Below are positions 29,461-49,280 of a DNA stretch of 64,000 nt, in pieces (positions within the stretch are counted from its first letter, which is position 1; every line of letters starts with the position of its first letter). Both the position numbers and the translations under genes were made by a program. Below the pieces are notes generated by a model that saw only the letters and a list, made by a program, of their open reading frames with translations, was not told where the DNA came from and searched no databases. Location of the stretch: IMG/VR virus record IMGVR_UViG_3300042465_007929, positions 75,991 to 139,990 of that record; one strand, 5' to 3'. This stretch comes from a virus.

Positions 29461-30160
29461 TGATTATAATGTCAAAGTTTCTAATTATCTCTTCAGCCTT
29501 CTTTTGAAATATAGATTTTAAGTTTTTTACTTGTCTATATCCTGCTTTTCTTTTTTTCTCATTAGTTTTATATCCCATATATGCAGCTACTTCTTCTTCT
29601 GAAGAATTTTGAAAAAATAACATAAGATATGCTTGATAATGAATTGCACTTAATTGTGTTGCCATATGTTCATTAAGTTTTGAAACAGATAAATCATAAG
29701 AAAAATCATTATCTGGACGTGAACTTATTTCATTAATATGGTTTTCAGTGGAAACAGTAATTTTTAAATCTAATCCTGCTTTTTTTTGACTTGACCATTT
29801 ATCATATAATTTACATTGGTTATCTTGAATACCAGTTCGTGTTGCCGAACAGGTATTATCTCCCATATTAAATTGACACTTTACACAAGGACGAACATAG
29901 TTACCATAATGGTTTCGAACAAGGTTTCGTATTTGATTGGATATAATCCTGCCAATCCAAGGCTCCAAAGGTCTAATCTGATCCCACATATCCCATTTTT
30001 TATGAATATGAATTTTAATGATTTGTTCAACGTCTTCAAAATCAAACCAATTAATAGCGTTTAGTTGCCATTTGTTTTTTTGCTTTTTAATTGCTGCATC
30101 AATTACATCAGAATAATCTTCGAATGTTTGTTTATCGTTTTTTTTCATCAATGAAGTCAT
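29447..30160 (-). CDS. Phage RNA polymerase sigma factor (ECF-like, Cys-rich insert)
   Basis: Region-2-like DFEDVEQII..H..KW...D..RPLEPWI..IISNQIRNL and region-4-like LS..HYQAY..L....SEEEVA..MGY, with a CxxC insert. Confidence 0.7.
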   Translation of the reverse strand: MTSLMKKNDKQTFEDYSDVIDAAIKKQKNKWQLNAINWFDFEDVEQIIKIHIHKKWDMWDQIRPLEPWIGRIISNQIRNLVRNHYGNYVRPCVKCQFNMGDNTCSATRTGIQDNQCKLYDKWSSQKKAGLDLKITVSTENHINEISSRPDNDFSYDLSVSKLNEHMATQLSAIHYQAYLMLFFQNSSEEEVAAYMGYKTNEKKRKAGYRQVKNLKSIFQKKAEEIIRNFDIIINETD

Positions 30161-30470
30161 CTATTGATTTTCTACGACCACCATTATAAGCTTTTGTGCC
30201 GTCGCCAAATAAACTGCCAAAAGTAAAAGAATGGTTTCCGCCATCAGACTCTACATCAACAGCCAATCTTTTAATATCAGGAACAAAATCTACTCCTGTT
30301 TCGTCTTCCTCTAAATCATCATATTCTTCTTGAATATTAACTTTAGATGGCGCAACATTTTTTGCAACAGATATAGAAGATAAGCCTGTACCGCATTTCG
30401 TGCAGAAATTTGGTTTAGCTAAACTATATTGGATCTTGTTGCCACAACTAGAACAAAAAATATGATTCAT
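30132..30470 (-). CDS. Zinc-ribbon protein
   Basis: FCSSCG...NFCTKCG. Confidence 0.7.
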   Translation of the reverse strand: MNHIFCSSCGNKIQYSLAKPNFCTKCGTGLSSISVAKNVAPSKVNIQEEYDDLEEDETGVDFVPDIKRLAVDVESDGGNHSFTFGSLFGDGTKAYNGGRRKSIDDFIDEKKR

Positions 30471-30482
30471 ACCTATACATTA

Positions 30483-30511
30483 AGTATAAATAGTAAACCA
30501 TACTTTTTCAA
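30483..30511 (-). promoter_or_regulatory. Sigma70-type promoter for the zinc-ribbon/sigma-factor operon
   Basis: Minus strand TTGAAA-N17-TATACT, 12 nt before ATG 30470. Confidence 0.6.
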
Positions 30512-30592
30512 TAATAAGACAAAAATATCTTTTAAATTAGCTTTTCGCAGCTTGAGCGTGATATGTTATTGTCAACTATATTTACACACTAC

Positions 30593-31321
30593 TTAACCAT
30601 TTAGTCTTTTAATAATAAATTTAAGTATTTGACTTCTAACAATATCTGATTCATTAAAAGTAAATGCACATATACCATTACTTTCTGAAACTGGATCATT
30701 AAAAATACTAAACATTTGATTAAATCCACCGCGACCATTAATATCACTTTGCATGAAATCGCCGCAGATGATTATCTTGGTATCTTCTCCTATGCGAGTA
30801 ATTAGCGTTGTAAGCTCTTTGAATGTGAAGTTCTGAGCTTCATCAGCAACAATCAATTTATTATTCCAAGAAGCCCCTCTAAGGAAGTTAATTGGTGCGG
30901 CAGCAATTTTTTCCTGACCTTTCAAGAACGCCACATCTCCTGCATGAATGATTTCTTCAAGCTTATCATAAAGTGGCATTAGAAATGGATCAAACTTCTC
31001 AGAAATATCTCCCGGAAGTGAACCCAATCCCTTATCAGCACTTTCTGCAATACTTCTAATATATATTAAATCTTTTTCTTTGTTTTCTTGCATTATCTGC
31101 AATGCACCATAAAGAGAAATATATGTTTTAGAAGTTCCTGCTGGACCCGAAATAAATATAATTTTATTTTCGGGGTTGAGAATTATATCTAATAAAGTTT
31201 TTTGTTTATCAGTGAATTTAAATTTTCTATTTTTGAATTTAATTGGTTGGTCCAGTATATTTTTAATATCTGGTAAATCAAACTCTTTCCTTTTTACCTT
31301 CGCAGCTTTTTTAATTGCCAT
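30593..31321 (-). CDS. phoH: PhoH-family ATPase
   Basis: GPAGTSKT, LGSLPGD..EKF.P, FLRG, ADEAQN, TRIGE..K..ICGD..QSD and DIVRS motifs. Confidence 0.92.
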   Translation of the reverse strand: MAIKKAAKVKRKEFDLPDIKNILDQPIKFKNRKFKFTDKQKTLLDIILNPENKIIFISGPAGTSKTYISLYGALQIMQENKEKDLIYIRSIAESADKGLGSLPGDISEKFDPFLMPLYDKLEEIIHAGDVAFLKGQEKIAAAPINFLRGASWNNKLIVADEAQNFTFKELTTLITRIGEDTKIIICGDFMQSDINGRGGFNQMFSIFNDPVSESNGICAFTFNESDIVRSQILKFIIKRLNG

Positions 31322-37001: not shown

Positions 37002-37334
37002 ACATATATTTATACACTATTATTTTTATTTTTTTGAAATTCAACGGAAGAGTTTTTTTGATTTTTTTTACTTTTTTCAAAATACGGTCCCGTATTTTTT
37101 TTCACTCTACGTTTAGAGCTTTTGTAAATGAATGAATGAGAAAGTGAGAAAACTGTCCCCCCTCCGCTTCTGAAGATCTAACAGTCAAAAAGTTTTGAGT
37201 AATGGGGTGGGTCAGGGTAGGTCATGGGGCTAGCCATAAAGGGGGAGGGGGAGTATCCTGTCAAGCACAAAAATAAATCATTTTTTATGCAGAAAGTTCT
37301 TGTATGGCCGCACGTTTTTCTTTATGCTTTGGGC

Positions 37335-37481
37335 ATGAGCAACACCGCTACACAATATCAGTTCGCAATCTACAACGGCGAAACCGTCCTCATCCTTGAG
37401 CAATTCGGAATGAATGCTTGGGTTTCTTTCAACGAAGGGGAAGAGATGGAAGTCTCAATGTTCGACCTCTGCCTTATCTGA
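37335..37481 (+). CDS. Small early protein (48 aa)
   Basis: Start reassigned to the ATG 6 nt after the TATGCT -10 box (TTGTAT at 37300). Confidence 0.65.
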   Translation: MSNTATQYQFAIYNGETVLILEQFGMNAWVSFNEGEEMEVSMFDLCLI

Positions 37482-37534
37482 AATAAACGAAAATAAACCT
37501 TGCGGTTCTACCCCGCATTTACTACATTATCCCC

Positions 37535-37693
37535 ATGCAAGACACTACTGCCCAACTCCTCGCTGACCTCGCTGCCGTTACCGCTCGCTTTGAAGCTCTC
37601 GCGCAACGCACGGGCGAGAACGCGCAAGCGTTCATCGAAGGTCTGAAAGATGACAAAAAAAACCTTGAGAACATGAAAAAAGTTCTTGCCTAA
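37535..37693 (+). CDS. Small early protein (52 aa, MQDTTAQLLADL...)
   Basis: Own promoter TTGCGG-N17-TACATT at 37500; below the ORF-track cutoff. Confidence 0.65.
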   Translation: MQDTTAQLLADLAAVTARFEALAQRTGENAQAFIEGLKDDKKNLENMKKVLA

Positions 37694-37720
37694 GCTCTCC
37701 CAATTCACTACACTACGCAC

Positions 37721-37993
37721 ATGACCACTTCAGCTCTTCCCTTCCCAATCGGCACTCTCACGACGCAAGGCATCTTTATCGGTATGCAAGGCAAGCTCGC
37801 ACGGTTTGAAAAGAATATCGGCACACGCACTAGCCCTTGCCTTTGCTCTCCTAAGCTCGCCCAAGTCATCACGCAAGAACAAGAAGACGCTCGCCTTGCT
37901 GCCGAGGACGCTTGCCGCACTCGTGGCTTCTGGGGTAACGCTACTGTCTTGCGCGGTGACGCTGCCCTTGCTGCCCTCGCTACCCTCGCCTAA
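37721..37993 (+). CDS. Small early protein
   Basis: Own promoter TTGCCT-N17-TACACT at 37686. Confidence 0.65.
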   Translation: MTTSALPFPIGTLTTQGIFIGMQGKLARFEKNIGTRTSPCLCSPKLAQVITQEQEDARLAAEDACRTRGFWGNATVLRGDAALAALATLA

Positions 37994-38011
37994 CCTCTAC
38001 ACACTACACAC

Positions 38012-38248
38012 ATGAAACAACCATTGACCAATAGAGAGAAAGCCACGCGCCTAGTGAATCGAGCCGTCAAGCTCTTGAGTGATAACGCCGTATGCCTTAG
38101 CGACCTAGCCGATACCTTTGATCTATGCGCTGGACTAGATGAACTAGAGGAGATGATGGCAGATAGATCTATCCCTATGTGCGACCTGCAAGACACCGCG
38201 CAAGACATAGCTTCCCAACTACTAGAAGAAGAAGGCTTCCCAGTCTAA
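38012..38248 (+). CDS. Small acidic early protein
   Basis: 78 aa, D/E-rich C-terminal half. Confidence 0.6.
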   Translation: MKQPLTNREKATRLVNRAVKLLSDNAVCLSDLADTFDLCAGLDELEEMMADRSIPMCDLQDTAQDIASQLLEEEGFPV

Positions 38249-38260
38249 CACCCAACACTT

Positions 38261-38467
38261 ATGCACCTAACGCAAGACAACCTCGAAACTCTATCACACA
38301 TGGGCTTTCCTATGTATAGCGGATGTCGCAATGAAGCCGTCGCCTATGCAATAGAAGAGATGGGTATCTCACTAGATGAGATACTAGGCAAGCTATCAGA
38401 TGACACCGTTCTAACAGCTATCTTCCAAAGCATACAAGTTATGGGTTTGATGCCATACAAGGATTAG
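38261..38467 (+). CDS. Small early protein
   Basis: 68-aa ORF in the same run. Confidence 0.55.
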   Translation: MHLTQDNLETLSHMGFPMYSGCRNEAVAYAIEEMGISLDEILGKLSDDTVLTAIFQSIQVMGLMPYKD

Positions 38468-38542
38468 TATAAATCAAATGTATAGTATAACTCCTCCCCC
38501 ATGTGGGGGCGGGGTATCTGTGCGCCTCATGTAACCGCCTCT

Positions 38543-38619
38543 GTAAGTCGCTGAATATCAACGAGTTACGGCGGCAGAGCCGCCCCGCCTCCATAAGTCG
38601 TTGATAATCAAGCAGTTAT
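38543..38619. repeat. 77-bp paired-palindrome element, copy 1
   Basis: gtaagtcgctgaatatcaacgagttac + 23-bp GC core + ataagtcgttgataatcaagcagttat. Confidence 0.95.
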
Positions 38620-38744
38620 GAAGGGAGAAAGATCATGCCCCGAAAGCTTTGTCAAGAAAAAAGTGCAGAAAAAATGAGAAAAAAAAGATGAAAAAGATCA
38701 AAAAAGATCTTGCGACAATCGGGCTTTTCAGTTACTCTCTGGGC

Positions 38745-39074
38745 ATGGAAACACTCCTTACCACTACCGCCCCAAACCTGAAAGCCGCTTATACCGCTGT
38801 CCCTCTTGAGACAACAACAAAAACAACAGAAGGAAAAGTTGTTACTTGCTACTACGCAAAAGAACAAATCGTTTGCGACTATGGCTACAATCAAATAACA
38901 ACCTACGAAATTGGCGACAGAATCAATGGTGAGTATCGCAAAGATGGACTTGTCCAAGCTGATACTTACGGTTGCCTCACGACTAAAACAATCCCTTGGG
39001 AAAAGATCGTTACCCGCGAATATATCACGGTGCGCGAATACAAAACCACCACTTGGGAAATTCTCGATAAATAA
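38745..39074 (+). CDS. Early protein (109 aa)
   Basis: Start METLLTTT, 6 nt after TACTCT (TTGCGA at 38710). Confidence 0.65.
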   Translation: METLLTTTAPNLKAAYTAVPLETTTKTTEGKVVTCYYAKEQIVCDYGYNQITTYEIGDRINGEYRKDGLVQADTYGCLTTKTIPWEKIVTREYITVREYKTTTWEILDK

Positions 39075-39122
39075 ACGAAAAAAGATCTTGCTACCTGCTA
39101 AAAATTAACCTAGAATCTGCTC

Positions 39123-39311
39123 ATGACTGAAACACTACTTACCACTACTGAATTGCTCGACCTCGCTTGGAACCTCTACGACATCGTGGAAAACAAAGGC
39201 AATCATCTTCTCGAAAGTCTTTTGATTGATGTTGAAAAAGAACACGGCGAAAAAGTCCGTAGTCAAATTGAATACCTCTTGGAAGTCGAATGCAACATTC
39301 AAGACATGTAA
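39123..39311 (+). CDS. Small early protein
   Basis: Promoter TTGCTA-N17-TAGAAT at 39088; N-terminus ETLLTTT shared with 38745. Confidence 0.65.
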   Translation: MTETLLTTTELLDLAWNLYDIVENKGNHLLESLLIDVEKEHGEKVRSQIEYLLEVECNIQDM

Positions 39312-39365
39312 AAAAAGATCAAAAAAGATCTTGCTATAAGCTCGAAACTGAACTAAAATAACGCC

Positions 39366-39509
39366 ATGACCACCCAATACAACGAAATGTTCGCCAAGTT
39401 CCAAAACGGCCAAATCACCGAAAAAGTCTGGTTCGACTTCTGCTTCGAAACACTGAGCCAGATCATGGAGGATAACAAGGACGTTTTTGTTCGCTTGAAA
39501 AATTGCTAA
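39366..39509 (+). CDS. Small early protein (47 aa, MTTQYNEMFAKF...)
   Basis: Promoter TTGCTA-N17-TAAAAT at 39331. Confidence 0.6.
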   Translation: MTTQYNEMFAKFQNGQITEKVWFDFCFETLSQIMEDNKDVFVRLKNC

Positions 39510-39518
39510 TGTCAAGGA

Positions 39519-39548
39519 AAATCTTCCCGAAAGGGGAGGTTTTTTTAT
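39519..39548 (+). terminator. Intrinsic terminator
   Basis: ATCTTCCC-GAAA-GGGGAGGT followed by a T-tract. Confidence 0.75.
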
Positions 39549-39604
39549 GCAAAAATCTGAAAATAAATCTTGACTGGGGCAAAAATGCCTGAAAATAAAA
39601 AGTC

Positions 39605-39681
39605 ATAAGTCGCTAATACTCAATGAGTTATGGCGGCGGGGCGGCAGCGCCGCTGTAAGTCGTTGATAATCAATGACTTAT
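39605..39681. repeat. 77-bp paired-palindrome element, copy 2
   Basis: ataagtcgctaatactcaatgagttat + ggcggcggggcggcagcgccgct + gtaagtcgttgataatcaatgacttat. Confidence 0.95.
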
Positions 39682-39796
39682 GCAAGTACTAGGTGCGCCG
39701 TAGTTAGGATCTGTCAAGCGAAAAAGTGAAAAAAATAAATAAAAAAAACACAAAAAAGATCTTGCGCGGGGTCGATTCTTTCGCTATACTTTGGGC

Positions 39797-39904
39797 ATGC
39801 GAGGGAGTGAACGCCCTTTCAGAAAAGGACTCTCGGAGCTGGCTAGGTTGCTGAGGATAAAGTCGGGGTAAGATCCCCCAAATCGTGCCACTGCTTTTCT
39901 GAAA
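39797..39904 (+). ncRNA. Candidate structured small RNA (alternatively a 24-aa peptide gene, 39797-39871)
   Basis: Strong promoter TTGCGC-N17-TATACT at 39762. A perfect 11-bp stem (39817-39827/39894-39904) encloses smaller hairpins. Confidence 0.35.
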
Positions 39905-39946
39905 AAACTTCTTGCACTACCTCTCAAAATTAACTACTCTTTGCAC

Positions 39947-40096
39947 ATGGAAAACTATAAAGGATTCAAATTCGACTACGATCAAGGCTTCATCACTTTC
40001 TATCATCCAGACATGGAAGAGGGGAATGGAGATTGGAGCGGTTCCGCTTCCTGCATGGAAGATGCAATGGAAATCATCGACGAAATGACTTTCTAA
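39947..40096 (+). CDS. Small acidic early protein (49 aa, MENYKGFKFDY...)
   Basis: Promoter TTGCAC-N17-TACTCT at 39912. Confidence 0.6.
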   Translation: MENYKGFKFDYDQGFITFYHPDMEEGNGDWSGSASCMEDAMEIIDEMTF

Positions 40097-40151
40097 GATA
40101 AAATCTAAAAAAGATCTTGCCATAGGTAAAAAAACAAACTAAAATTTCGCC

Positions 40152-40346
40152 ATGACCTTGGAAGACCAAATCACCCGCAACTCGAAAGAGTGCCTCGACT
40201 ATCTCGCATTCTCAAACTACGAATTCAATCGGATTCTCAACCCTGAGATTTCCCCTCAACGCTGGGGGCTTGTATACGGCGCGGAGCTTGTCGAGAAAAT
40301 GGAAGCGGCATTCCAAGCAAAAAAAATGTTGACAATAGACGTTTAA
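40152..40346 (+). CDS. Small early protein
   Basis: Promoter TTGCCA-N17-TAAAAT at 40117. Confidence 0.65.
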   Translation: MTLEDQITRNSKECLDYLAFSNYEFNRILNPEISPQRWGLVYGAELVEKMEAAFQAKKMLTIDV

Positions 40347-40366
40347 AATTCTAAACTTTCCCCGAC

Positions 40367-40540
40367 ATGAAAAACGCAATCCTCGAAAGTCTCTTCCTGC
40401 TTCTCTGCTCTATCCTCTGCGGTGGATTCCTCTTTCTCATCGAATGCCCCGCTTGGCTTCAAAATGGTTTCTTTGCAATGATGGTTGCACCTGCTCTCTG
40501 GTTCATTCCTCAAAGAATTTTGAGCGAGATGAAAAAATAA
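40367..40540 (+). CDS. Small two-helix membrane protein (57 aa)
   Basis: MKNAILESLFLLLCSILCGGFLFLIE...EMKK; promoter TTGACA-N17-TAAACT at 40329. Confidence 0.6.
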   Translation: MKNAILESLFLLLCSILCGGFLFLIECPAWLQNGFFAMMVAPALWFIPQRILSEMKK

Positions 40541-40579
40541 GTTGACCAACTCCGAAAAATTCGTTACTCTTTCCCCGAC

Positions 40580-40762
40580 ATGAAAACCGCTACATTCCAA
40601 ATCACTGTTCACTTCCCGAAGGCTAAATGCTATGACACATTCCTGATTGATGCCTCTGGCATTCGCTGGGCAATCGAAAATGGATCAAAAGCTGTCCAGA
40701 TGAAATATCCATCCATGATTGAAAAAGCAGATTTTGAGATCGTAACAGCAGAAAAAGTTTGA
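40580..40762 (+). CDS. Small early protein
   Basis: Promoter TTGACC-N17-TACTCT at 40542. Confidence 0.65.
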   Translation: MKTATFQITVHFPKAKCYDTFLIDASGIRWAIENGSKAVQMKYPSMIEKADFEIVTAEKV

Positions 40763-40809
40763 CACCTGCAAAAAAATCCTTTATTCTCACCTCGCAACCA
40801 ATAAATAAC

Positions 40810-41064
40810 ATGACACTGACCTATAATACCCCATCCGCTAAAATTGCATCCGATCTTGTCGGAAAGACCGTTCGCTATCTCTCGAACAAATCCAAGACAA
40901 CTCCTTCGGGTGTTCGCGTTTTCAAAATTGAAAGCGTGGAAAATGTTGACTTCGCCGCCAAGACTGGCAAGCGTTATGTAACCGTCCTTGCAAAGGACAT
41001 CGACGACGCAGGAACGCCCAAGTATCGCAACTTGCACCTTGCAGGAATCGACTTGATCGTCTGA
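40810..41064 (+). CDS. Small basic early protein (84 aa)
   Basis: Start MTLTYNTP after promoter TTGACA-N17-TATTCT at 40759. Confidence 0.65.
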   Translation: MTLTYNTPSAKIASDLVGKTVRYLSNKSKTTPSGVRVFKIESVENVDFAAKTGKRYVTVLAKDIDDAGTPKYRNLHLAGIDLIV

Positions 41065-41135
41065 AGAAAAAAAGTCCTAAGCAAGACGAAAAAAGGCTTG
41101 ACTCAAACCTATAAAAAATTCTAAACTCTCCCGAC

Positions 41136-41300
41136 ATGAAAAACATTATCCTTACTGCTCTGTTCTCCGCTTCTCACATTCTCATCTTCATGGTTGCCCG
41201 TGAATATCTGAACATGAAGGGCGAGCTAAACTTTCTTGTGTTCTGGTCAATGCTTGGCGTGACATGGGCCGCAGCGATTCGCGCTGAGTTGAAAAAATAA
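41136..41300 (+). CDS. Small two-helix membrane protein (54 aa), similar in plan to 40367
   Basis: MKNIILTALF...ELKK; promoter TTGACT-N18-TAAACT at 41098. Confidence 0.6.
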   Translation: MKNIILTALFSASHILIFMVAREYLNMKGELNFLVFWSMLGVTWAAAIRAELKK

Positions 41301-41323
41301 TTTCTGGTATAGTGTGTTAGGGG

Positions 41324-41364
41324 GGCTGGTTTCTGCGTAGTGGCGGAAACCAGCTTTCCTGTTT
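41324..41364 (+). terminator. Probable terminator hairpin
   Basis: GCTGGTTTCTGC...GCGGAAACCAGC followed by TTTCCTGTTT. Confidence 0.6.
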
Positions 41365-41424
41365 ATGAAAAAATAATTAAAAAAAGTCTTGACAACCTGC
41401 CAGCGCGTCTGAAATAAAAAAGTC

Positions 41425-41501
41425 ATAAGTCGCTAAGTATCAACGAGTTACAGAGGCGGGGCCGCAGCGTCGCCGTAAGTCGTTAATAATCAACGAGTTA
41501 C
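41425..41501. repeat. 77-bp paired-palindrome element, copy 3
   Basis: ataagtcgctaagtatcaacgagttac + 23 bp + gtaagtcgttaataatcaacgagttac. Confidence 0.95.
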
Positions 41502-41589
41502 GACATGTCAAGCAAAATAATAAAAAAATAATTAAAAAAAACATCAAAAAGTTCTTGTCATGGGGTCAGATCTTCTTTATTCTCTGGGC

Positions 41590-41928
41590 ATGAGCTTGCT
41601 CCCATTCCCATCCGATTCCGCCGACTACGAAGAATATTGCTCCGTCATGGAGGCGATGGCTGACGAGGCCGAAGCGTCCGCGCCTGATCCTGAGCCTGTG
41701 CATTCCGATGCTCGTTACACCGATGCCGAACTCTACCCCGAATCCCAGTATGGGGGCGATGGCCCTTGGAATGCCGACGAGGAGTCGGATGAGCTTCGCG
41801 CCCGTGAGGATGCCGACTACTATGCCTCCATGCACGAGTGCGAGAATGAACCAGAGGATCGCTACCTTGACTCCCAATGGGAGGATGCCAATGAGTACGG
41901 CATGGAGGGATGCTGCGGAGATTTTTGA
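41590..41928 (+). CDS. Extremely acidic 112-aa protein (candidate DNA mimic)
   Basis: By hand count 34 D/E, 4 R and 0 K. Promoter TTGTCA-N17-TATTCT at 41555. Only gene between elements 3 and 4. Confidence 0.65.
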   Translation: MSLLPFPSDSADYEEYCSVMEAMADEAEASAPDPEPVHSDARYTDAELYPESQYGGDGPWNADEESDELRAREDADYYASMHECENEPEDRYLDSQWEDANEYGMEGCCGDF

Positions 41929-41946
41929 AAAAAAGTCTTGACACGC

Positions 41947-42023
41947 CTAACTCGTTGAATATCAGCGAGTTACGGCGGCGGGGCGGCGCAGCCCCCATAA
42001 GTCGTTGATAATGAGTGACTTAC
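41947..42023. repeat. 77-bp paired-palindrome element, copy 4 (third degenerate palindrome at 42039-42065)
   Basis: ctaactcgttgaatatcagcgagttac + 23 bp + ataagtcgttgataatgagtgacttac. Confidence 0.95.
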
Positions 42024-42069
42024 AGAGATTTTGTTTTCCTAACTCATTGATGCTTAATGTGTTATCTCC

Positions 42070-42191
42070 TATTTGTGGCATAATAATTTGCAGCCTATTT
42101 GGGCTATAAAAATTTGCAGCCTATTTGTCAAGAAAAAAATCACAGCCTGTTAGGAATTTATTTTCATATTTAAGCAATAAAAGATTGCAGC
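42070..42191. repeat. Four direct repeats of TATTTR.-N9-.(A/T)T(C/T)(A/G)CAG, three at 26-bp period
   Basis: Copies start at 42070, 42096, 42122 and 42167. Confidence 0.75.
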
Positions 42192-42222
42192 CTAAAAGAG
42201 TTTCTGTCATTCTCTCCTTGCC

Positions 42223-42417
42223 ATGACATTTAAAGAACTCCTAGAATTAGAATCCTCATTCGACTCCTGCTTTAACGAACTGGTTTATCAGTTGAAACAA
42301 AAAGGAATGGATCGTGAATACTATGCACTACTCACAGAAAAATATCGGTCGTTGTCTGCTCAAATTGGCACACAATTAGATTTGATTTCTCTTGACGAAC
42401 AACCATTGAAAGACTAA
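42223..42417 (+). CDS. Small early protein
   Basis: Promoter TTGCAG-N17-CATTCT at 42185. Confidence 0.6.
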   Translation: MTFKELLELESSFDSCFNELVYQLKQKGMDREYYALLTEKYRSLSAQIGTQLDLISLDEQPLKD

Positions 42418-42429
42418 CCTATCCCTGCC

Positions 42430-42594
42430 ATGAAAACATTCATTAGCTCCGTTACAATCAACATCGAAATCCAAGCAGAGAATCTAATCGACGCTGAAGA
42501 GAAATTCTTTGAAATGGATTTCGCCATCACTCATCCCGACGGTCAAGAAGCCGATTGGACTTTTATCGAACAAGAAATGGAAGAAAAATACTAA
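42430..42594 (+). CDS. Small acidic early protein (54 aa, MKTFISSVTINIE...)
   Basis: Promoter TTGACG-N17-TAACCT at 42392. Confidence 0.6.
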   Translation: MKTFISSVTINIEIQAENLIDAEEKFFEMDFAITHPDGQEADWTFIEQEMEEKY

Positions 42595-42595
42595 T

Positions 42596-42748
42596 ATGAA
42601 ACTACTAAAGAAAATCTACAACAGGATCAATCCTCCACCACCATCAATCTATGGCAAGAACATCTTTGTTCAAAAAAGTTGGTTGACAAAACAGATGGAA
42701 GATGCTGTGTTCAATCAAGCAAAGAATCAAATCTATCAACTCCGATAA
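42596..42748 (+). CDS. Small protein (50 aa)
   Basis: ATG immediately after the previous stop codon. Confidence 0.5.
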   Translation: MKLLKKIYNRINPPPPSIYGKNIFVQKSWLTKQMEDAVFNQAKNQIYQLR

Positions 42749-42752
42749 TGTT

Positions 42753-42974
42753 ATGTACCTCGCAACTCTTATCCATAATCAATCTCTTGGCTGCATTTTC
42801 ATGTGTGACACTTTTGAAAAGGCACTCACAAAGGCTCATTCAATCGCTGTCAATACTCTTGATCGGGATCTGCTTGAAAATGAACTCTTTGATCTCGAAG
42901 AAACTGGAGAGATTTTCGTTGAATATGATGACGACAATCAATACACTTTCTGCGTGGCACTAATTGAAGACTAA
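42753..42974 (+). CDS. Small acidic protein (73 aa)
   Basis: Start MYLATLIH, 4 nt after the previous stop. Confidence 0.55.
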   Translation: MYLATLIHNQSLGCIFMCDTFEKALTKAHSIAVNTLDRDLLENELFDLEETGEIFVEYDDDNQYTFCVALIED

Positions 42975-42987
42975 ATAAAAAAATAAT

Positions 42988-43185
42988 ATGAAAAAAGATA
43001 ATACACTGAAGCGTTGGTTGAAACTTGGATGGTCTGCTAGCTGGACTGAGCGTGAAGACAAAGCGCACAAGGCAGGCATTCTCCTCGGAGTTAAGCAGGG
43101 TCTTGAAATGGCTCGACAAAAGGAAAATAATCGTAAGCGATTGAGTTATCAAAAAAAACTTGCAAACAAGTTGACTAGCGTTTAA
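42988..43185 (+). CDS. Small basic protein
   Basis: 65-aa ORF in the operon. Confidence 0.55.
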   Translation: MKKDNTLKRWLKLGWSASWTEREDKAHKAGILLGVKQGLEMARQKENNRKRLSYQKKLANKLTSV

Positions 43186-43194
43186 TCTTCGCCC

Positions 43195-43521
43195 ATGTCA
43201 GTAAATCCTCAAGAGGCGACACTCTATTGTCGTATGGAACTCAAAAGCTATGGCTTAAAAGATCATTCCATTGTGTGGCGCGAATGGTCACACACTCTTG
43301 GGGAAGCATGGCCCTCTAATAAAGAAATACATCTTAGCTTTAGATGTTTAAAAAATAAAGAATTGCTGATCGAAATCATAAAACATGAAATCGCTCATGT
43401 GTTAGACCATAAAGAACGTGGAACATTTTTGCGTAATGGTCGCAATGACTTTCACGGCGCAAACTGGAAAAAATGGTGCAAGGTTGTTGGCGTAAGACCT
43501 AGAAGGTTTATCCCTGTATAA
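43195..43521 (+). CDS. SprT-like zinc metalloprotease
   Basis: LG.A......I.LS, HEIAH and HGANWKKWC..VG SprT motifs. Its stop codon is the TAA that begins element 5. Confidence 0.8.
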   Translation: MSVNPQEATLYCRMELKSYGLKDHSIVWREWSHTLGEAWPSNKEIHLSFRCLKNKELLIEIIKHEIAHVLDHKERGTFLRNGRNDFHGANWKKWCKVVGVRPRRFIPV

Positions 43522-43594
43522 GTCGTTGATTATCAACGAGTTGCGGGGGCGCGGGGGCAGAGCCGCCATAAGTCGTTGATTCTTAGCGAGTTAT
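43518..43594. repeat. 77-bp paired-palindrome element, copy 5
   Basis: ataagtcgttgattatcaacgagttgc + 23 bp + ataagtcgttgattcttagcgagttat. Confidence 0.95.
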
Positions 43595-43700
43595 AAACAA
43601 TTAATTTCTTAGCCCCAAAAGCTTGTCAAGCAAAAAAGAATTTTATTTTTTATCAAATAGTTCTTGCAGGTATGGGGCATTCTGTTATTCTTTGGTCGCA

Positions 43701-44015
43701 ATGAACGAACCCTACGAACACTATCTAACTAACGGAGTCGATCTTCGTATTCCGCTCCATGCTCGCGCATACCTTAAAGCAGCAAGCCATTATCTTTCCA
43801 GTTGGCCGCAAGATTGGAGTGCAGAGCGTCTTTCCCTTGCTATCATGGCAGACGAAGATGAACCAGAAAGCCAAGCATTGAAAGACCGTAAAGAAGTTAA
43901 AGTTTGGGAGGCTCTAGACAGAGTTTGGGAGAATCTAGAAACAACGGAAGACGCTGGGCTTTATGTTGAAACAATGATTGCTAATCTTGCAGAAGACTTT
44001 ATCCTTTTCAAATAA
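43701..44015 (+). CDS. Early protein (104 aa)
   Basis: Start MNEPYEHY after TTGCAG-N16-TATTCT at 43664. Confidence 0.6.
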   Translation: MNEPYEHYLTNGVDLRIPLHARAYLKAASHYLSSWPQDWSAERLSLAIMADEDEPESQALKDRKEVKVWEALDRVWENLETTEDAGLYVETMIANLAEDFILFK

Positions 44016-44016
44016 G

Positions 44017-44235
44017 ATGAAAAACACTTTAGAAAAACTCAACGAAGTAAAAACATTTCTCAATACTTTGCTTGACAGCTCAAACGAAGAAGCGATAGAC
44101 TTGCTCGTCAACTATGGCGAAGACATCGAAGAAACATTACAAAAAGCCATTAACCAAATAATCTTATCAAAAACAAATGATCTCTGTATACCTACAAAAC
44201 AAAACATATTCGACCTTGATTGCAAAATTTGCTGA
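44017..44235 (+). CDS. Small protein
   Basis: ATG right after the previous stop; overlaps the next ORF. Confidence 0.45.
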   Translation: MKNTLEKLNEVKTFLNTLLDSSNEEAIDLLVNYGEDIEETLQKAINQIILSKTNDLCIPTKQNIFDLDCKIC

Positions 44236-44338
44236 TGACGAAATCTATCAGCTTTGCTTTCCTACTTTACAAAAAGAAGCTAGCACATATGGTTGGATCA
44301 TCACCGAAACGAAAGACGAGAACCCCTTAGAAGATTAA
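44177..44338 (+). CDS. Small protein (53 aa, MISVYLQNK...)
   Basis: Read manually; fills a gap in the operon. Confidence 0.45.
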   Translation: MISVYLQNKTYSTLIAKFADDEIYQLCFPTLQKEASTYGWIITETKDENPLED

Positions 44339-44342
44339 AAGC

Positions 44343-44510
44343 ATGAAACATTTAGTATTTACAGTTACAAACGGCTTTGTAGAATTTCGCATGGGCGGAC
44401 GCATGGGGAGTCATCCCCTTGGGGACGATTCGCCAGATTGGGTTATCGACTACTTAATCAAAATAATCAATCCAGACACACATGAAATCATACGATCCAA
44501 AACGAATTAA
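44343..44510 (+). CDS. Small protein (55 aa, MKHLVFTV...)
   Basis: Read manually; ATG 4 nt after the previous stop. Confidence 0.45.
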   Translation: MKHLVFTVTNGFVEFRMGGRMGSHPLGDDSPDWVIDYLIKIINPDTHEIIRSKTN

Positions 44511-44670
44511 AGTAAAGGCAACAGTTATCATTGACATGGAAATCAATGACGGCTATACCCTTGAGGAAGCAATCGACAATCTTGTAGTCAATATGCACTG
44601 CAATCATACAGATTCTGCTTATGTGTTTGATAGTGAATTAACCTCTTACCAACCCCTATATCAATTATGA
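44482..44670 (+). CDS. Small protein
   Basis: 62-aa ORF in the operon. Confidence 0.5.
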   Translation: MKSYDPKRIKVKATVIIDMEINDGYTLEEAIDNLVVNMHCNHTDSAYVFDSELTSYQPLYQL

Positions 44671-44843
44671 CTGAAGAAATGCAATATGTAATCAATAGCC
44701 CTTATACAAGCTATTGGTTGAGGAATGCAATCCAAGAATGTCTTGCGCGTGATGCGCTGGATGCAAGAGCAGATGCAAAACTATTGTTTAATCTTTTAAA
44801 CGATAGGCTGAACGAAATGCTTGACAAACATAAATCTGTTTGA
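44667..44843 (+). CDS. Small protein (58 aa; SYWLRNAI..CL.RDA.DA.ADA motif)
   Basis: ATGA overlap with the previous gene; read manually. Confidence 0.55.
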   Translation: MTEEMQYVINSPYTSYWLRNAIQECLARDALDARADAKLLFNLLNDRLNEMLDKHKSV

Positions 44844-44855
44844 TTCTCTTCCCCT

Positions 44856-44932
44856 GTAAGTCGTTGAAACTCAGCGACTTATGGCGGCGGGGCGGCAGCG
44901 CCGTTGTAACTCGTTGATAATGAGTGAGTTAC
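44856..44932. repeat. 77-bp paired-palindrome element, copy 6
   Basis: gtaagtcgttgaaactcagcgacttat + ggcggcggggcggcagcgccgtt + gtaactcgttgataatgagtgagttac. Confidence 0.95.
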
Positions 44933-45078
44933 GCAAGTACTAAGACAGTAGTAGTTGGCGGGTGTCAAGCGAAAAAGAAAAAAGAATTTTCAGAAAAGAT
45001 CAAAAAAGATGTTGCAGTCCCACTCATAACGGGTTAATCTTTCCCCGTCTCCAGTAAACAACTAAACCAATAAAAAAT

Positions 45079-45819
45079 ATGTCACTTATCATCTCAAGCA
45101 ACAAAGTATCCGCCGAACAACTCGCCAGCGTCTTCACGCCAGCGAAAACTGATTCGCATCAGCCAATCGCTCACTCTGTCCTTGTCGATATGACCCGCGA
45201 AGCTCTCGACCGTGTTGGCTTGCAAATCCGCGAGGAAGAGCATGGTCTTGCCAATGGCGGCTTGAACTACTTTGGTGGCTTTGCCCTCAAAGGTTCCGAC
45301 ATCTATTCGGCGGAACGTGAAATCGTTCTTGGTCTTCGCAATTCAAACAATAAGCGTTTCGCTGCTTCGATCTGCCTTGGCAATCGCATGATGGTTTGCG
45401 AAAACCTTTGCTTCTCGTCTGACGTGAAGCTGTCCCGCACTCATACAACGCACATCATGCGCGATCTTCCGCGCATCATTGCCGATGCCATGAGCCGCGT
45501 TGTCACTTCATGGAATGACATGGAACAACGCATCGAAAGCTACAAGAACACCGAAATTTCCAGCCGCCGCGCTGAAAACATTGTTGTTGACTTGGCCGAT
45601 TCAAAGGCTTTGCCAATCCGTGAAATTTACAACACCATTCAGGAATTTCGCAACCCTCGCCATGAGGATTTCAAGGGCGGAACCTTGTGGAGTCTTTACA
45701 ACGCCGTGACTGAAAACCTCAAAGGTTCTTGCTTTACCAAACTGCCACAGCGCACGATGGTAACGCAAAGCATCTTTGATCGTATCGCAAAGCCAGCTCA
45801 AATTTTGGTCGAGGTCTGA
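45079..45819 (+). CDS. DUF932-family protein
   Basis: TP..T.SH.PI.H, LGLRNS, G.R..VCENL.F, RTHT and TLWSLYNAVTE motifs; only gene between elements 6 and 7. Confidence 0.75.
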   Translation: MSLIISSNKVSAEQLASVFTPAKTDSHQPIAHSVLVDMTREALDRVGLQIREEEHGLANGGLNYFGGFALKGSDIYSAEREIVLGLRNSNNKRFAASICLGNRMMVCENLCFSSDVKLSRTHTTHIMRDLPRIIADAMSRVVTSWNDMEQRIESYKNTEISSRRAENIVVDLADSKALPIREIYNTIQEFRNPRHEDFKGGTLWSLYNAVTENLKGSCFTKLPQRTMVTQSIFDRIAKPAQILVEV

Positions 45820-45832
45820 TCCGTATGCCGCG

Positions 45833-45861
45833 AGCCTCGCCCCGAAAGGGGCGGGGTTTTT
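45833..45861 (+). terminator. Intrinsic terminator
   Basis: AGCCTCGCCCC-GAAA-GGGGCGGGGTTTTT. Confidence 0.8.
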
Positions 45862-45888
45862 CGCGTTGTCAAGAAAAAACTTTCAGTC

Positions 45889-45965
45889 ATAACTCACTAA
45901 GTATCAAGGAGTTACGGGGGCGCGGGGGCCGCGCTGTCCTAAGTCGTTGATAATCAACGAGTTAC
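45889..45965. repeat. 77-bp paired-palindrome element, copy 7
   Basis: ataactcactaagtatcaaggagttac + 23 bp + ctaagtcgttgataatcaacgagttac. Confidence 0.95.
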
Positions 45966-46071
45966 GCTGTCAACAAAAAACATAAAAAATCTCCTGTCAA
46001 GTAAAATAAAATAAAAAATAAATGCAGAAAAGTCTTGTGCATCTCTCGCGTTTTGCTAACCTGTGGGCCAC

Positions 46072-46779
46072 ATGAACTTGCTCAACTCTGGAAACTCCAA
46101 AACTCGTAAAGGTGAAAAAAAAGGCTGGACGACGTTCGGCATTCACCTAGCTCCCGCCTCTCTGTCTGGTTTCAATGTTTGCGACTCGTCAAGTGCGGGT
46201 TGCCGTTGGGCTTGCCTCAACACTTCGGGGCGTGGCGCAATGTCTTCCGTGCAACGCGCACGAATTGCAAAAACAAAATTGTTCTTTACTGACAAGCGGC
46301 TTTTCATGTCGATGCTCTTCAAAGAAATCACAGCAGGAATTAAGAAATCCGCAAAGACTGGAATGCGTCCTTGTTTCCGTCTCAATCTGACTTCTGATCT
46401 GCCTTGGGAAAAAATAAAGTTCGATGGATGCACTGTCATGGAAGCATTCCCAAACGTGCAATTTTACGATTATTGCAAGTCACCAGAACGCATGACTAAA
46501 TTTCTGGCGGGTGAAATGCCAGCAAACTATCACTTGACCTTTTCCCGCAGTGAAGAGAATGGCGATGTTGCTTTGGCTTTCCTCAAGTCTGGCGGCAATG
46601 TTGCAATGGTCTTTCGTAATTCTCTCCCCTCTTCTTACTTTGGCCATGAGGTAATCGACGGAGACGAAACCGATTTGCGCTTCCTCGACGGTTCGGGCAA
46701 GATCATTGGTCTGAAAGAAAAGGGTCTTGCTAAAAAAGACTCGACAGGCTTTGTCCTCGAACCTACACTTGCATCATGA
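46072..46779 (+). CDS. GP88-like protein with a Cys cluster
   Basis: C.SSSAGC..ACL..SGRG, RLN.TSD..WE, VQFYDY.K, NYHLTFS and DGD.TDLRFLD motifs. Start MNLLNSG after promoter 46035. Confidence 0.65.
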   Translation: MNLLNSGNSKTRKGEKKGWTTFGIHLAPASLSGFNVCDSSSAGCRWACLNTSGRGAMSSVQRARIAKTKLFFTDKRLFMSMLFKEITAGIKKSAKTGMRPCFRLNLTSDLPWEKIKFDGCTVMEAFPNVQFYDYCKSPERMTKFLAGEMPANYHLTFSRSEENGDVALAFLKSGGNVAMVFRNSLPSSYFGHEVIDGDETDLRFLDGSGKIIGLKEKGLAKKDSTGFVLEPTLAS

Positions 46780-46882
46780 AGCCTTGGCAATACCTGATTC
46801 TGTTTTTTACTTTTCTGATTCTCGCTTTCCATCGAGACAGAAAAAACATCTTCAAGCGTGAACTTAACCCAGAAAATTTTGA

Positions 46883-47080
46883 ATGAACCTTTTTCAATTC
46901 ATCGAAGATGTTGATGCTGGCAAGTTCTTTGTTTCTGCCGTGCATGATGGTTGCAGCGTAACAAACATTGCGATTTATCCCATAGTTGATTCTTTAGTAT
47001 ATCCTGCGCTACTCATGGACTTGCATTCGATGCAGCCTCTGATTGATATGGTAGAGGATAAACTTGCGGAAGTTGCATGA
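46883..47080 (+). CDS. Small protein
   Basis: 65 aa; preceded by a 36-aa hydrophobic ORF (46776-46886) with ATGA overlaps. Confidence 0.5.
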   Translation: MNLFQFIEDVDAGKFFVSAVHDGCSVTNIAIYPIVDSLVYPALLMDLHSMQPLIDMVEDKLAEVA

Positions 47081-47091
47081 GATAAAATTGT

Positions 47092-47117
47092 CCACCTCGC
47101 AAGAGGTGGCTTTTTTG
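47092..47117 (+). terminator. Intrinsic terminator
   Basis: CCACCTC-GCAA-GAGGTGG-CTTTTTT. Confidence 0.8.
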
Positions 47118-47174
47118 TGAAAATTTCTTAAAATAATTCTTGACAAGCGAAAAAAGTTCTGAAAATAAAAAGTC

Positions 47175-47251
47175 ATAAGTGACTCATTATCAACGAGTTA
47201 GGGAGGCGGGGCCGGGACGCGCCCGTAAGTCCTTTAGTATCAGTGAGTTAT
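47175..47251. repeat. 77-bp paired-palindrome element, copy 8
   Basis: ataagtgactcattatcaacgagttag + 23 bp + gtaagtcctttagtatcagtgagttat. Confidence 0.93.
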
Positions 47252-47316
47252 AAAAGAAAAAAAATAATAAAAAACTTGTTGACGTTGTGAGCTGACTGGG
47301 TTAATCTCTCCCCGTC

Positions 47317-47610
47317 ATGAAAAAACTATTCTTTGAATACACGCTTGCTGCCTTTCCAATCTACGACGAAGGAAAGAAACTCTTTTCAGAAGTCATCGTC
47401 GAAGACGATATGGATGACGATTGCATTCTTGAAACCATCTTTGCTTGGTGCAATAATGGATCGCGCAGAGAATGTCAAGCATTTCTTGATTCAAATCTTC
47501 GCTCTCTTTCCGTCGGTGATTATGTTACTATTGGCACTTGCTTTTCCGACGCTCGCAAGTATCGTTGTGAATCGCAGGGCTGGACTCACTTCCTTGCAAG
47601 ACTCCACTAA
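47317..47610 (+). CDS. Early protein (RSLSVGD motif)
   Basis: Promoter TTGACG-N17-TAATCT at 47279. Confidence 0.65.
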   Translation: MKKLFFEYTLAAFPIYDEGKKLFSEVIVEDDMDDDCILETIFAWCNNGSRRECQAFLDSNLRSLSVGDYVTIGTCFSDARKYRCESQGWTHFLARLH

Positions 47611-47614
47611 TACC

Positions 47615-47992
47615 ATGAAACAAATCCAAGTATACTACAACTTCCGCAAAAAGCTTTTCTCCGTTCAAGAGAAGATCAATGGCAAGTGGAAGGTCGTTGA
47701 ACACACAAACGAAATCTTTATCCGTAATGCCACGTTCAAGGTGAGCGAGGCAGGGCGGCAAAGAGTAATCAAGGAGAAGCGCAAAAATGTTCATGCAAAG
47801 ATCGTGGGTGAGCGTTTCCCATTCATCCCCAAGTCTTTTGTCTACCGCGACGAAGTTTCTTACAACCCTTACAAGGGACCAAACTTTATGGTAGTATCAG
47901 AACAAAAACCTCTTGACTGGGCAAAATATGTCACTATTCTCAACGGCAAGGTGATCGCACTGATCCCCGAATTCAAAGGAACAAGAATCTAA
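47615..47992 (+). CDS. Conserved phage hypothetical protein (GRQRV..EKRKNVHA...YNPYK motif)
   Basis: Start reassigned to MKQIQVYYN. Confidence 0.65.
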   Translation: MKQIQVYYNFRKKLFSVQEKINGKWKVVEHTNEIFIRNATFKVSEAGRQRVIKEKRKNVHAKIVGERFPFIPKSFVYRDEVSYNPYKGPNFMVVSEQKPLDWAKYVTILNGKVIALIPEFKGTRI

Positions 47993-48003
47993 CAACTAAA
48001 ACT

Positions 48004-48351
48004 ATGGGCCTCGATCAATACGCAAAAGTTCGCAATCCAAAAACGCAAGAAATGGAGGAGTTCCACTACTGGCGCAAACATAACGCTCTGCATGGGTGGA
48101 TGGAAAATCTCTGGAAGTCCAAGGGTAATACTGGCGAGTTCAACTGCGAACCAGTCCAGCTTTCCCATGCCGATCTTGATTCACTCAAGAAGGATCTTAT
48201 GGCAAGCAGCTTGCCAGAGACAAAAGGATTCTTTTTCGGTTCTGATAGCAACCTCGACGATTCGCGTCTGATGGATGACCTTCACTTCATCGCACAAGCA
48301 AAAGAACATCTTGACGTAGGGATGGAAGTCGCCTACGATTCTTGGTGGTAA
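48004..48351 (+). CDS. Conserved phage hypothetical protein (MGLDQY...YWRKHN.LHGW...GFFFG...YDSWW)
   Basis: Recognisable motif set of a widespread phage family of unknown function. Confidence 0.7.
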   Translation: MGLDQYAKVRNPKTQEMEEFHYWRKHNALHGWMENLWKSKGNTGEFNCEPVQLSHADLDSLKKDLMASSLPETKGFFFGSDSNLDDSRLMDDLHFIAQAKEHLDVGMEVAYDSWW

Positions 48352-48376
48352 GATAAATCTCCAACAAACAAACACT

Positions 48377-48643
48377 ATGATACAAATTGCACAAAAAATG
48401 ACAATGTGGGAAGAGTTCAATATCGAAGACGATATGCAAGAATCTCTTTTGAGCTATCTCAAAGACTTTCCCAACGCCGATTATAATGACCTTTATAACT
48501 GGGCTTGTGACAATGGTTGCGATCCAGAGTCTCACACTCTGGAAGGAACCGAAGAAGTTCTAACGCCAGAAGATAATGGTGGGCAATCTACTCTTGAAAT
48601 CACCGCATTCCCAAACAATAAAATCATTTTTCAAAACGCATGA
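48377..48643 (+). CDS. Small acidic protein
   Basis: 88 aa, D/E-rich. Confidence 0.6.
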   Translation: MIQIAQKMTMWEEFNIEDDMQESLLSYLKDFPNADYNDLYNWACDNGCDPESHTLEGTEEVLTPEDNGGQSTLEITAFPNNKIIFQNA

Positions 48644-48810
48644 ACCACATTGACTTTATCATGGCCTACGAAGGTGGGGAAATCACAACAGAAGAAGAAT
48701 TGATCGCTGGCTTTCAAGCTATGATCGACGACGGCTCTGTCTGGGAACTTCAAGGGTTCTATGGGCGAACTGCTCGCGGCTTGATTGATTGTGGCGATTG
48801 CCACGCATAA
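48640..48810 (+). CDS. Small conserved phage protein (IMAYE.GE...FQ..ID.G..W.LQG.YGR.A)
   Basis: 56 aa, ATGA overlap; read manually. Confidence 0.65.
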   Translation: MNHIDFIMAYEGGEITTEEELIAGFQAMIDDGSVWELQGFYGRTARGLIDCGDCHA

Positions 48811-48823
48811 AAGCTTGACTCTC

Positions 48824-48900
48824 CTAACTCGTTGGTTATCAGCGAGTTATGGAGGCGCGGCCCCCTCTTCGTCATAACTCTTTGATTATCAGTGACTTAT
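48824..48900. repeat. 77-bp paired-palindrome element, copy 9 (third degenerate palindrome at 48909-48935)
   Basis: ctaactcgttggttatcagcgagttat + 23 bp + ataactctttgattatcagtgacttat. Confidence 0.93.
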
Positions 48901-49203
48901 GTCAATTCATAAGTTGTTGATGCTTAGTGTGTTATGTATAGTATTGTTTATTTAGATCATGGGTATTCACAGGTAGAAAAGAGTAGGGTAGCGTTGACGA
49001 ACTCATCCGCCGACGCTACCCTTGCAGCATCACCATTGCCGCTTTACGTTAGTGAAAATTTGTTTATTTAGGTTCGTTTTATTCACAGGGAAAAATGGTA
49101 GGGAGTTTATGAACTGAGGAAAACTAATGAAACCTCCTCCCTACCATTCTCACATTAAACCCAACGAAGCACCCCTGCATGTTGAGAAAGTTTAGAAAAT
49201 GTT

Positions 49204-49280
49204 TGGTGATTCAGACAGAACTCGAATCTGTAACCTACACATTAGAAGTGTGTTGCTCTATCCAATTGAGCTACTGAACC
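49204..49280 (-). tRNA. tRNA-Arg(TCT)
   Basis: GGTTCAG-TAGCTCAATTGGATAGAGCA-ACACA-CTTCTAA-TGTGT-AGGTT-ACAGA-TTCGAGT-TCTGT-CTGAATC-ACCA cloverleaf with encoded CCA. Confidence 0.93.

Follow-up and report, generated by a model that had tools for sequence, protein, structure and literature searches.

What are paired palindromes doing between the early genes of a phage, and which protein would bind them? The question is raised by IMG/VR virus record IMGVR_UViG_3300042465_007929, a phage record of 139,990 bp whose final 64 kb (positions 75,991 to 139,990) was analysed; this whole stretch of 64,000 nt is referred to as the window and is numbered from its first base. Nine 75-bp copies of one element, all intergenic, align gap-free within an early block of higher G+C content that houses all of them (37200..48950, + strand, delimited by G+C and sequence reading). 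In each element two 25-bp palindromes (11+3+11) flank a core that is also 25 bp long, so that their starts are exactly 50 bp apart. The G+C content of the core is 72-92% across copies, about 88%. From the pattern of the palindromes, their register, their distribution and their host contexts we infer a binder, its bending of DNA and a role. With slightly better than even confidence, the palindromes are read as sites of a host IHF-like bending protein and the elements as architectural markers at the borders of early modules.

Register of the palindromes on the IHF consensus

The original prediction, made from the letters of the window, had described each palindrome as back-to-back IHF consensus sites, with at least one perfect match in 16 of the 18. 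A recount with WATCARNNNNTTR gave exactly 16 of 18; copies 2 and 6 provide the exceptions, each with its left palindrome, as stated there. The perfect half was also found mostly on the side that faces the core (the matching arm in 7/9 left and 7/9 right palindromes). When exact consensus matches were counted against a shuffled background, the window proved enriched: it contains 32 exact matches to WATCARNNNNTTR versus 16.6 ± 3.9 in shuffles, 0 of 100 shuffles reached 32, and 22 of the 32 matches fall inside palindromes. A mirror-doubled pattern, which uses only the positions specified by IHF, mirrored about the centre, gave 21 window matches at ≤1 mismatch versus 0.65 ± 0.85 expected in shuffles. 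All 18 element palindromes fit this pattern at ≤1 mismatch, and together with two extra single palindromes (42040-42064 and 48910-48934) they make up 20 of the 21 matches.

IHF introduces two kinks into the H' site, 9 bp apart, and the distance from H'44A, a change at the central T of TTR, to the nearer of them is 6 bp (PMC5829579; bioRxiv 10.1101/382655). This published geometry places a kink after the A of WATCA|R and the pseudo-dyad on W. Mirrored about this dyad, the IHF consensus reads YAA-N4-YTGA-(T)W(A)-TCAR-N4-TTR, which has the 11+3+11 layout of the 25-bp element palindromes. With the sequence register aligned to the published H' numbering, T8|T9 and A17|A18 are the predicted kinks, 9 bp apart. 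A dyad on W combined with the 11-3-11 mirror makes the palindrome what a single dimer would meet with both halves optimal. Two IHF dimers could not be held by consensus elements that overlap so heavily. What stands of the back-to-back description is the consensus match in the correct register; the two separate sites are better replaced by one symmetric dimer site.

A logo built from 664 distinct phage sites of the palindrome family gave the consensus TAASTCGTTGA-NWN-TCAACGASTTA, often flanked by CG. T9, A17 and A2 are invariant, and A3, T23 and T24 are conserved at 98-100%. Position 18 (A.83 / G.16) and position 25 (A.95 / G.05) are the R positions of the IHF consensus, and the dyad base (A.42 / T.40) is its W. 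In about one third of the family sites neither strand contains an exact WATCAR, since the spacer conforms only loosely to T-W-A. The nnnn positions had been claimed to be more conserved than IHF requires, and in the elements they were indeed seen as C/T, G, A and S; in the logo, N4 (half-site order S, T, C, G/A) and the flanking CG are likewise conserved beyond the needs of IHF. The palindromes thus share every specified WATCARNNNNTTR position with the IHF sites of E. coli and phage lambda (H' site, PDB 1IHF), in the same register and with the R and W degeneracies included. In those sites, however, the consensus occupies one half and the other half is AT-rich or an A-tract, whereas here the consensus is present in both halves, N4 is conserved along with the CG flank, and the GC-rich core forms the inner flank.

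Three successive inverted repeats in one unit could also mean that palindromes and core form hairpins in RNA or single-stranded DNA (terminators, processing sites, hairpin promoters or origins). Some bacterial copies lengthen the stem by variable complementary flanks and T runs, the half-site precedes terminators of phage DLP6, and elements of the 58-bp spacing class have a genuine GC hairpin, with a minimum free energy of -13.7 versus -8.7 kcal/mol for shuffles. The 50-bp class core, in contrast, folds like shuffles (-10.4 versus -10.3 kcal/mol). Mirrored positions of the palindrome do not covary: pair 4/22 is CG 180, GC 168, GG 137 and CC 123 times among the 664 sites, and at pair 8/18 compensated C-G pairs are depleted, with 8 versus ~22 under independence. 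Arms without covariation indicate a duplex protein site and not a hairpin, and the hairpin reading of the palindromes was rejected on this ground. In this phage the core has no trailing T run, and separate terminator-like hairpins precede elements 2 (39523-39539) and 8 (47092-47109), both found by the scan, and elements 3 and 7, found by eye. An Rfam scan of the early block returned only a tRNA and left the repeat element unmatched. Hairpins are thus a highly improbable account of the palindromes and core.

Distribution in phages and bacterial chromosomes

At least 119 IMG/VR stretches contain the palindrome pattern, for the most part as pairs at 50-bp spacing, and there are 720 sites within about 1 Mb of matched IMG/VR loci. 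The commonest spacing between neighbours is 50 bp (164 pairs), and minor classes lie at 34, 41-42 and 58 bp. Since helical phase is not conserved between paired sites, no single three-dimensional design follows for the family. A fixed U-turn or loop presenting the core to a second protein, as originally envisaged, therefore found no support. The alternative suggested with it, a titration of the host factor, may apply. In the searchable literature, the half-site strings returned no description of the motif; the matches were primers, one IHF paper and the terminators of DLP6. In this T4-like Stenotrophomonas phage (PMC5349666, Table 1), several predicted terminators are directly preceded by the half-site or its last six bases, and given these half-sites the motif may reach beyond the phage clade studied here. 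Several contigs of metagenome-assembled genomes (MAGs) are rich in paired palindromes and resemble phage contigs of this clade binned with bacteria: L130, L151 and L183 (MAG labelled Enterobacterales), the 138,977-bp L145 (Saccharibacteria MAG) and L161/L197 (Verrucomicrobiales MAG); these labels should not be taken for hosts before a check.

A bacterial scan with one genome per species gave 95 stretches, mostly with single sites on chromosomal contigs. The carriers are Fibrobacter, Akkermansia, other Verrucomicrobiota, Saprospiraceae, Cytophagales, Bacteroidales, Lentisphaerae and one Gemmatimonadota MAG; the few multi-site contigs are evidently phage DNA binned into MAGs. The palindrome was present in 23/61 genomes of Fibrobacterota and 9/81 of Verrucomicrobiota (reversed control 0 in both), and in 2/101 of Pseudomonadota, one of which is the seed genome (reversed control 1). 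This sampling of phyla indicates that the strict motif belongs to lineages other than those of classical IHF. The guess that a related host protein, and not IHF of E. coli type, may be the binder fits this taxonomic spread. In five host genomes, with two mismatches allowed, there were 2-12 sites each versus 0 for the reversed control, and the 12 were in an Akkermansia genome.

Two bacterial sites (L243, 2501-2525, and L219, 172-196) adjoin CRISPR arrays. In an Akkermansia genome, 9 bp separate a palindrome from the terminal repeat of an array of 18 repeats, on the cas2/cas1 side. The repeat at the far end of this array is degenerate, so the palindrome end is the leader end. On an unrelated Verrucomicrobiales contig with a different repeat, the distance from a palindrome to the cas-proximal repeat of a Cas9-Cas1-Cas2 locus is again exactly 9 bp. 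Published work describes an IHF site adjoining repeat 1 as a requirement for the integration of spacers in types I-E and I-F, and HU as taking the part of IHF in a type III-A system. The palindrome likewise adjoins the first repeat in the two verrucomicrobial loci, which differ in being type II (Cas9, Cas1, Cas2); the phage motif, for its part, has no CRISPR context. The leader palindrome could mark a host-factor site for type II spacer integration. To our knowledge, no host bending factor has been reported for type II CRISPR leaders. CRISPR spacers of Akkermansia and Verrucomicrobiales gave no match to the phage set.

A further context is the gene of an IHF-like protein. The Fibrobacter genome G004 contains 7 sites, one of them 42 bp upstream of such a gene, and a good half-site occupies the same upstream place in about 11 of 29 Fibrobacteraceae orthologues or paralogues. 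In E. coli the IHF genes are autoregulated. A position beside CRISPR repeat 1 and a position upstream of IHF-like genes are contexts typical of IHF, and indirectly they point to a protein of this family as the probable binder. The occurrence of the palindrome in other phages, in bacterial CRISPR leaders and upstream of IHF-like genes suggests that the phage probably borrows a bending protein of its host.

The other bacterial sites are scattered. In Cytophagales, a site lies between the 3' end of a tRNA gene and a helicase gene, beside an integrase gene, and most other Akkermansia sites are 50-110 bp upstream of start codons. The genes beside bacterial sites form no coherent regulon and include no adjacent regulator except the IHF-like gene. 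Two further observations were made at these sites. A second short palindrome, GCATTC-NN-AATGC, lies 25-45 bp from the palindrome and just upstream of -10-like hexamers in Akkermansia (L245, L246, L247, L241 and L249). In a Saprospiraceae MAG the palindrome has near-identical flanks on at least five contigs (L168, L169, L174, L176 and L198), which suggests that the copies form a repeated element there.

Several points weigh against an IHF-like binder with an architectural role. In IHF sites of E. coli type the two halves differ, one of them being an A-tract, and this asymmetry is missing here. The motif is far more informative than E. coli IHF sites (~18/25 positions, N4 conserved) and in this resembles the site of a specific regulator. 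The spacing classes of 34, 42, 50 and 58 bp have no common helical phase across the family, and the distance from element to promoter varies from 29 to 92 bp. Some palindrome-bearing Bacteroidota have an HU without the usual RNP-x-TG arm tip, and in those Bacteroidota runs of A and T often border the palindrome, in a terminator-like manner.

The main rival is a different specific regulator with 11-3-11 geometry. The palindrome would be the operator of a dimeric host regulator (winged-helix, e.g. of Rrf2/MarR type) used to repress or activate early modules, and its likeness to IHF sites would be chance. Inverted repeats of 11-3-11 have been described as characteristic of Rrf2 sites, the information content is high and base-specific, N4 included, and each host genome holds just the 2-12 near-perfect sites, mostly at the distance upstream of starts given above. 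Against this, the phage has no Rrf2 gene, and Fibrobacter G004, with its 7 sites, gave only sub-threshold matches; a Rrf2-type operator was dropped as unsupported because the Rrf2 gene does not accompany the sites. No recurrent regulator gene of another kind adjoins them either. The R/R/W degeneracies agree with IHF, as does the 9-bp kink register, and the CRISPR-leader position and the sites before IHF-like genes fit a bending protein. We regard the regulator as unlikely, and an IHF-like protein of the host as the better candidate.

The search for partners and the layout of the early block

The search for an HU/IHF-like or recombinase gene elsewhere in the genome was run as the original prediction had proposed, and neither was found. 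An HU/IHF gene (PF00216) is absent from the phage record and from two complete relatives (148 and 170 kb), and no tyrosine or serine recombinase (PF00589, PF00239) was found in the phage record, which leaves the suggested recombinase partner for the core without a candidate. A site-specific recombination site (attC, dif or res) was also rejected: no cognate recombinase was found in the phage record, and the spacer measures 3 bp where a crossover spacer would have 6-8 or 2 bp. The co-occurrence of neighbouring genes was used to look for a binder encoded by the phage. On one side of the block the shared neighbours are PhoH, a zinc-ribbon protein, a sigma-like protein, an ERCC4 nuclease and the large terminase (TerL), and inside it they are DUF932, GP88, an L5 gp82-like protein and several small proteins without Pfam match. 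None of the shared neighbour families in this search is an evident DNA-binding dimer. A binder encoded only by phages is an unlikely explanation, since the chromosomal sites would stay unexplained. The conserved row of genes next to the terminase (27507-31321, - strand) encodes an ERCC4-type nuclease with an N-terminal C2H2 zinc finger, a 349-aa protein of unknown function, a sigma-70-like protein, a zinc-ribbon protein and PhoH, and is common to 30-56 of the 119 related loci.

Within the 139,990-bp record the motif is restricted to the early block, except for one weak match. Element 1 (38544..38618) has palindromes at 38544-38568 and 38594-38618, both with 0 mismatches to the symmetric pattern, and its core at 38569-38593. 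It is followed by element 2 (39606..39680; palindromes 39606-39630 and 39656-39680, core 39631-39655) and element 3 (41426..41500; palindromes 41426-41450 and 41476-41500, core 41451-41475). Elements 4 and 9 are each trailed by a third, variant palindrome, the extra singles mentioned above. With it element 4 spans 41948..42064 (palindromes 41948-41972 and 41998-42022; third palindrome 42040-42064), and element 9, at the end of the early block, spans 48825..48934 (palindromes 48825-48849 and 48875-48899; third palindrome 48910-48934). After element 4 and its extra palindrome, a direct repeat of ~31 nt ending in TTGCAGCCTA occurs three times (42067-42194). A SprT-like open reading frame (43195-43521) ends within element 5 (43519..43593; palindromes 43519-43543 and 43569-43593), its stop codon being the first TAA of the left palindrome. 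Element 6 (44857..44931; palindromes 44857-44881 and 44907-44931) lies upstream of the DUF932 gene (45079-45819), and element 7 (45890..45964; palindromes 45890-45914 and 45940-45964) between that gene and a GP88-family gene (46063-46779), an arrangement that is syntenic in the closest relative, L082. Element 8 occupies 47176..47250 (palindromes 47176-47200 and 47226-47250).

The element copies are mutually 60-72% identical (28-40% divergent), and their length is exact in 9/9. An exact 50-bp spacing in all nine despite such divergence indicates that the length is under selection within this lineage. A short inverted-repeat unit in nine intergenic copies might be taken for a selfish miniature mobile element (MITE- or REPIN-like) that spread within the early block. 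There is, however, no transposase or RAYT-like partner and there are no target duplications, the divergent copies have retained their exact length, and the conserved part is identical across phyla and phages. Such an origin is very doubtful. The closest known composites of this kind are the RIP or BIME-1 elements of E. coli, in which inverted REP palindromes surround a central IHF site. Like them, the elements described here are extragenic repeated composites at the ends of transcription units, with GC-rich dyad DNA and IHF-type sites. The order is inverted, two IHF-like sites lying around one GC core, and the REP-IHF-REP arrangement was not found; RIP/BIME-1 are chromosomal, whereas these elements lie in a phage early region and have neither REP sequence nor RAYT.

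The elements separate small early transcription units, and a second comparison is with PeSL, the promoter-terminator motifs of T4-like phages (PMC2839356, PMC4122927). These are likewise short conserved composite motifs between small early genes in a plastic region. Four copies of the element (family D2) have a 159-nt extension in common, which includes a terminator-like hairpin as well as a promoter-like site, while the 75-bp unit itself carries neither. PeSL consist of a promoter and a stem-loop, whereas the elements here consist of a palindrome that resembles a protein site and is shared with bacterial chromosomes. By this analogy, the elements could be homology patches at module boundaries for the shuffling of early cassettes, perhaps bound by an early phage protein. 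The D2 extension and the PeSL precedent would suit such a role, as would L082 (~75% identity), in which the elements persist while the order and content of cassettes differ. The divergence from L082 is too high to place breakpoints, however. The phage has no recombinase, homology patches would not need a palindrome conserved in >100 diverse contigs and in core loci of bacteria, and a phage-only binder would leave the bacterial copies unexplained. As the explanation of the elements, shuffling is considered quite improbable; a PeSL-like shuffling role may exist alongside an architectural one.

The G+C content of the early block is 0.36-0.49, mostly >0.40, versus ~0.31 in the surroundings. The block is filled by small + strand genes, many with a sigma-70-like promoter of their own (30 promoter-like sites observed versus 19.2 ± 4.5 expected), and at many early genes an ATG lies 6-9 nt downstream of the -10 hexamer. 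The -35 hexamer that follows an element is 29-92 bp downstream. A count of near-palindromes containing TTGACA was dropped because it is confounded by the partner palindrome. The early genes look leaderless, with a TTGnnn -35, a TAnnnT -10 and the ATG close by, and without visible Shine-Dalgarno sequence; examples are 38710-38747, 39762-39799 and 41555-41592, with many others within 37200-48950. The shared string yTGGGCATG often spans their start. Between most elements and the following promoter there is a heptamer TGTCAAG, the reverse of a CTTGACA -35, followed by an A-rich tract of 40-55 bp (heptamers at 38650-38656, 39712-39718, 41506-41512, 43625-43631, 44963-44969 and 45995-46001). Gene families of the block include DUF932, GP88, mycobacteriophage L5 gp82-like and SprT-like proteins, and given these families and the G+C content the block may differ in origin from the rest of the phage or evolve under another constraint. 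Immediately past its end is the tRNA gene found by Rfam (49207-49280, - strand, 68.8 bits).

The phage itself is siphovirus-like, encoding a tape-measure protein and the large terminase. Megablast of the early block against cultured phages gave no match, and the best tblastn matches of TerL reached ≤25% identity only, which indicates a phage without close cultured relative.

Proposed role and significance

Under the favoured architectural reading, each 25-bp palindrome would be a strong, fully symmetric site for one dimer of a host protein of the HU/IHF family. The protein is predicted to kink the DNA at the two invariant T/A steps and to wrap ~35 bp, so that each element would carry two sharp bends 50 bp apart, flanking a stiff GC-rich core. 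Because the phage has no HU/IHF gene of its own, the sites would be filled by the abundant host factor upon entry of the DNA. The elements, sitting in the gaps between early transcription units, often past a terminator and ahead of the next -35, would fold the early region and insulate its modules topologically and against read-through. Possibly the repeats would also serve as homology patches for module exchange. Published simulations suggest that plectonemes can be pinned by IHF and DNA thereby partitioned into topological domains (PMC9519438). Such domains would be well matched to strong early promoters that lie close together.

IHF sites in phages and extragenic repeats that contain IHF sites (RIP/BIME-1) were known already. 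Four features are new: the IHF-like site is symmetric and shared across phyla, it is paired around a GC core, a phage early region uses it nine times, and it occurs in type II CRISPR leaders. A bolder proposal, which we consider a long shot, is that Fibrobacterota, Verrucomicrobiota and some Bacteroidota possess an undescribed sequence-specific IHF-like protein with a symmetric 25-bp site, used at type II leaders beside repeat 1, and that the super-consensus arrays which a large clade of aquatic phages carries in its first-expressed DNA act as a sponge, drawing this factor off the host chromosome, as well as folding the early region. If the arrays are a sponge, one consequence would be that spacer acquisition is blocked during infection.

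The motif is a practical marker of early regions in these phages, and it could help to link phages to hosts that share the chromosomal site. If the binder is IHF-like, its recognition site would be defined outside Proteobacteria, where nucleoid proteins have barely been studied, including those of gut Akkermansia and Fibrobacter. A host bending factor would then be indicated at type II CRISPR leaders, and a large uncultured phage clade would organise its early region around sites for a host factor.

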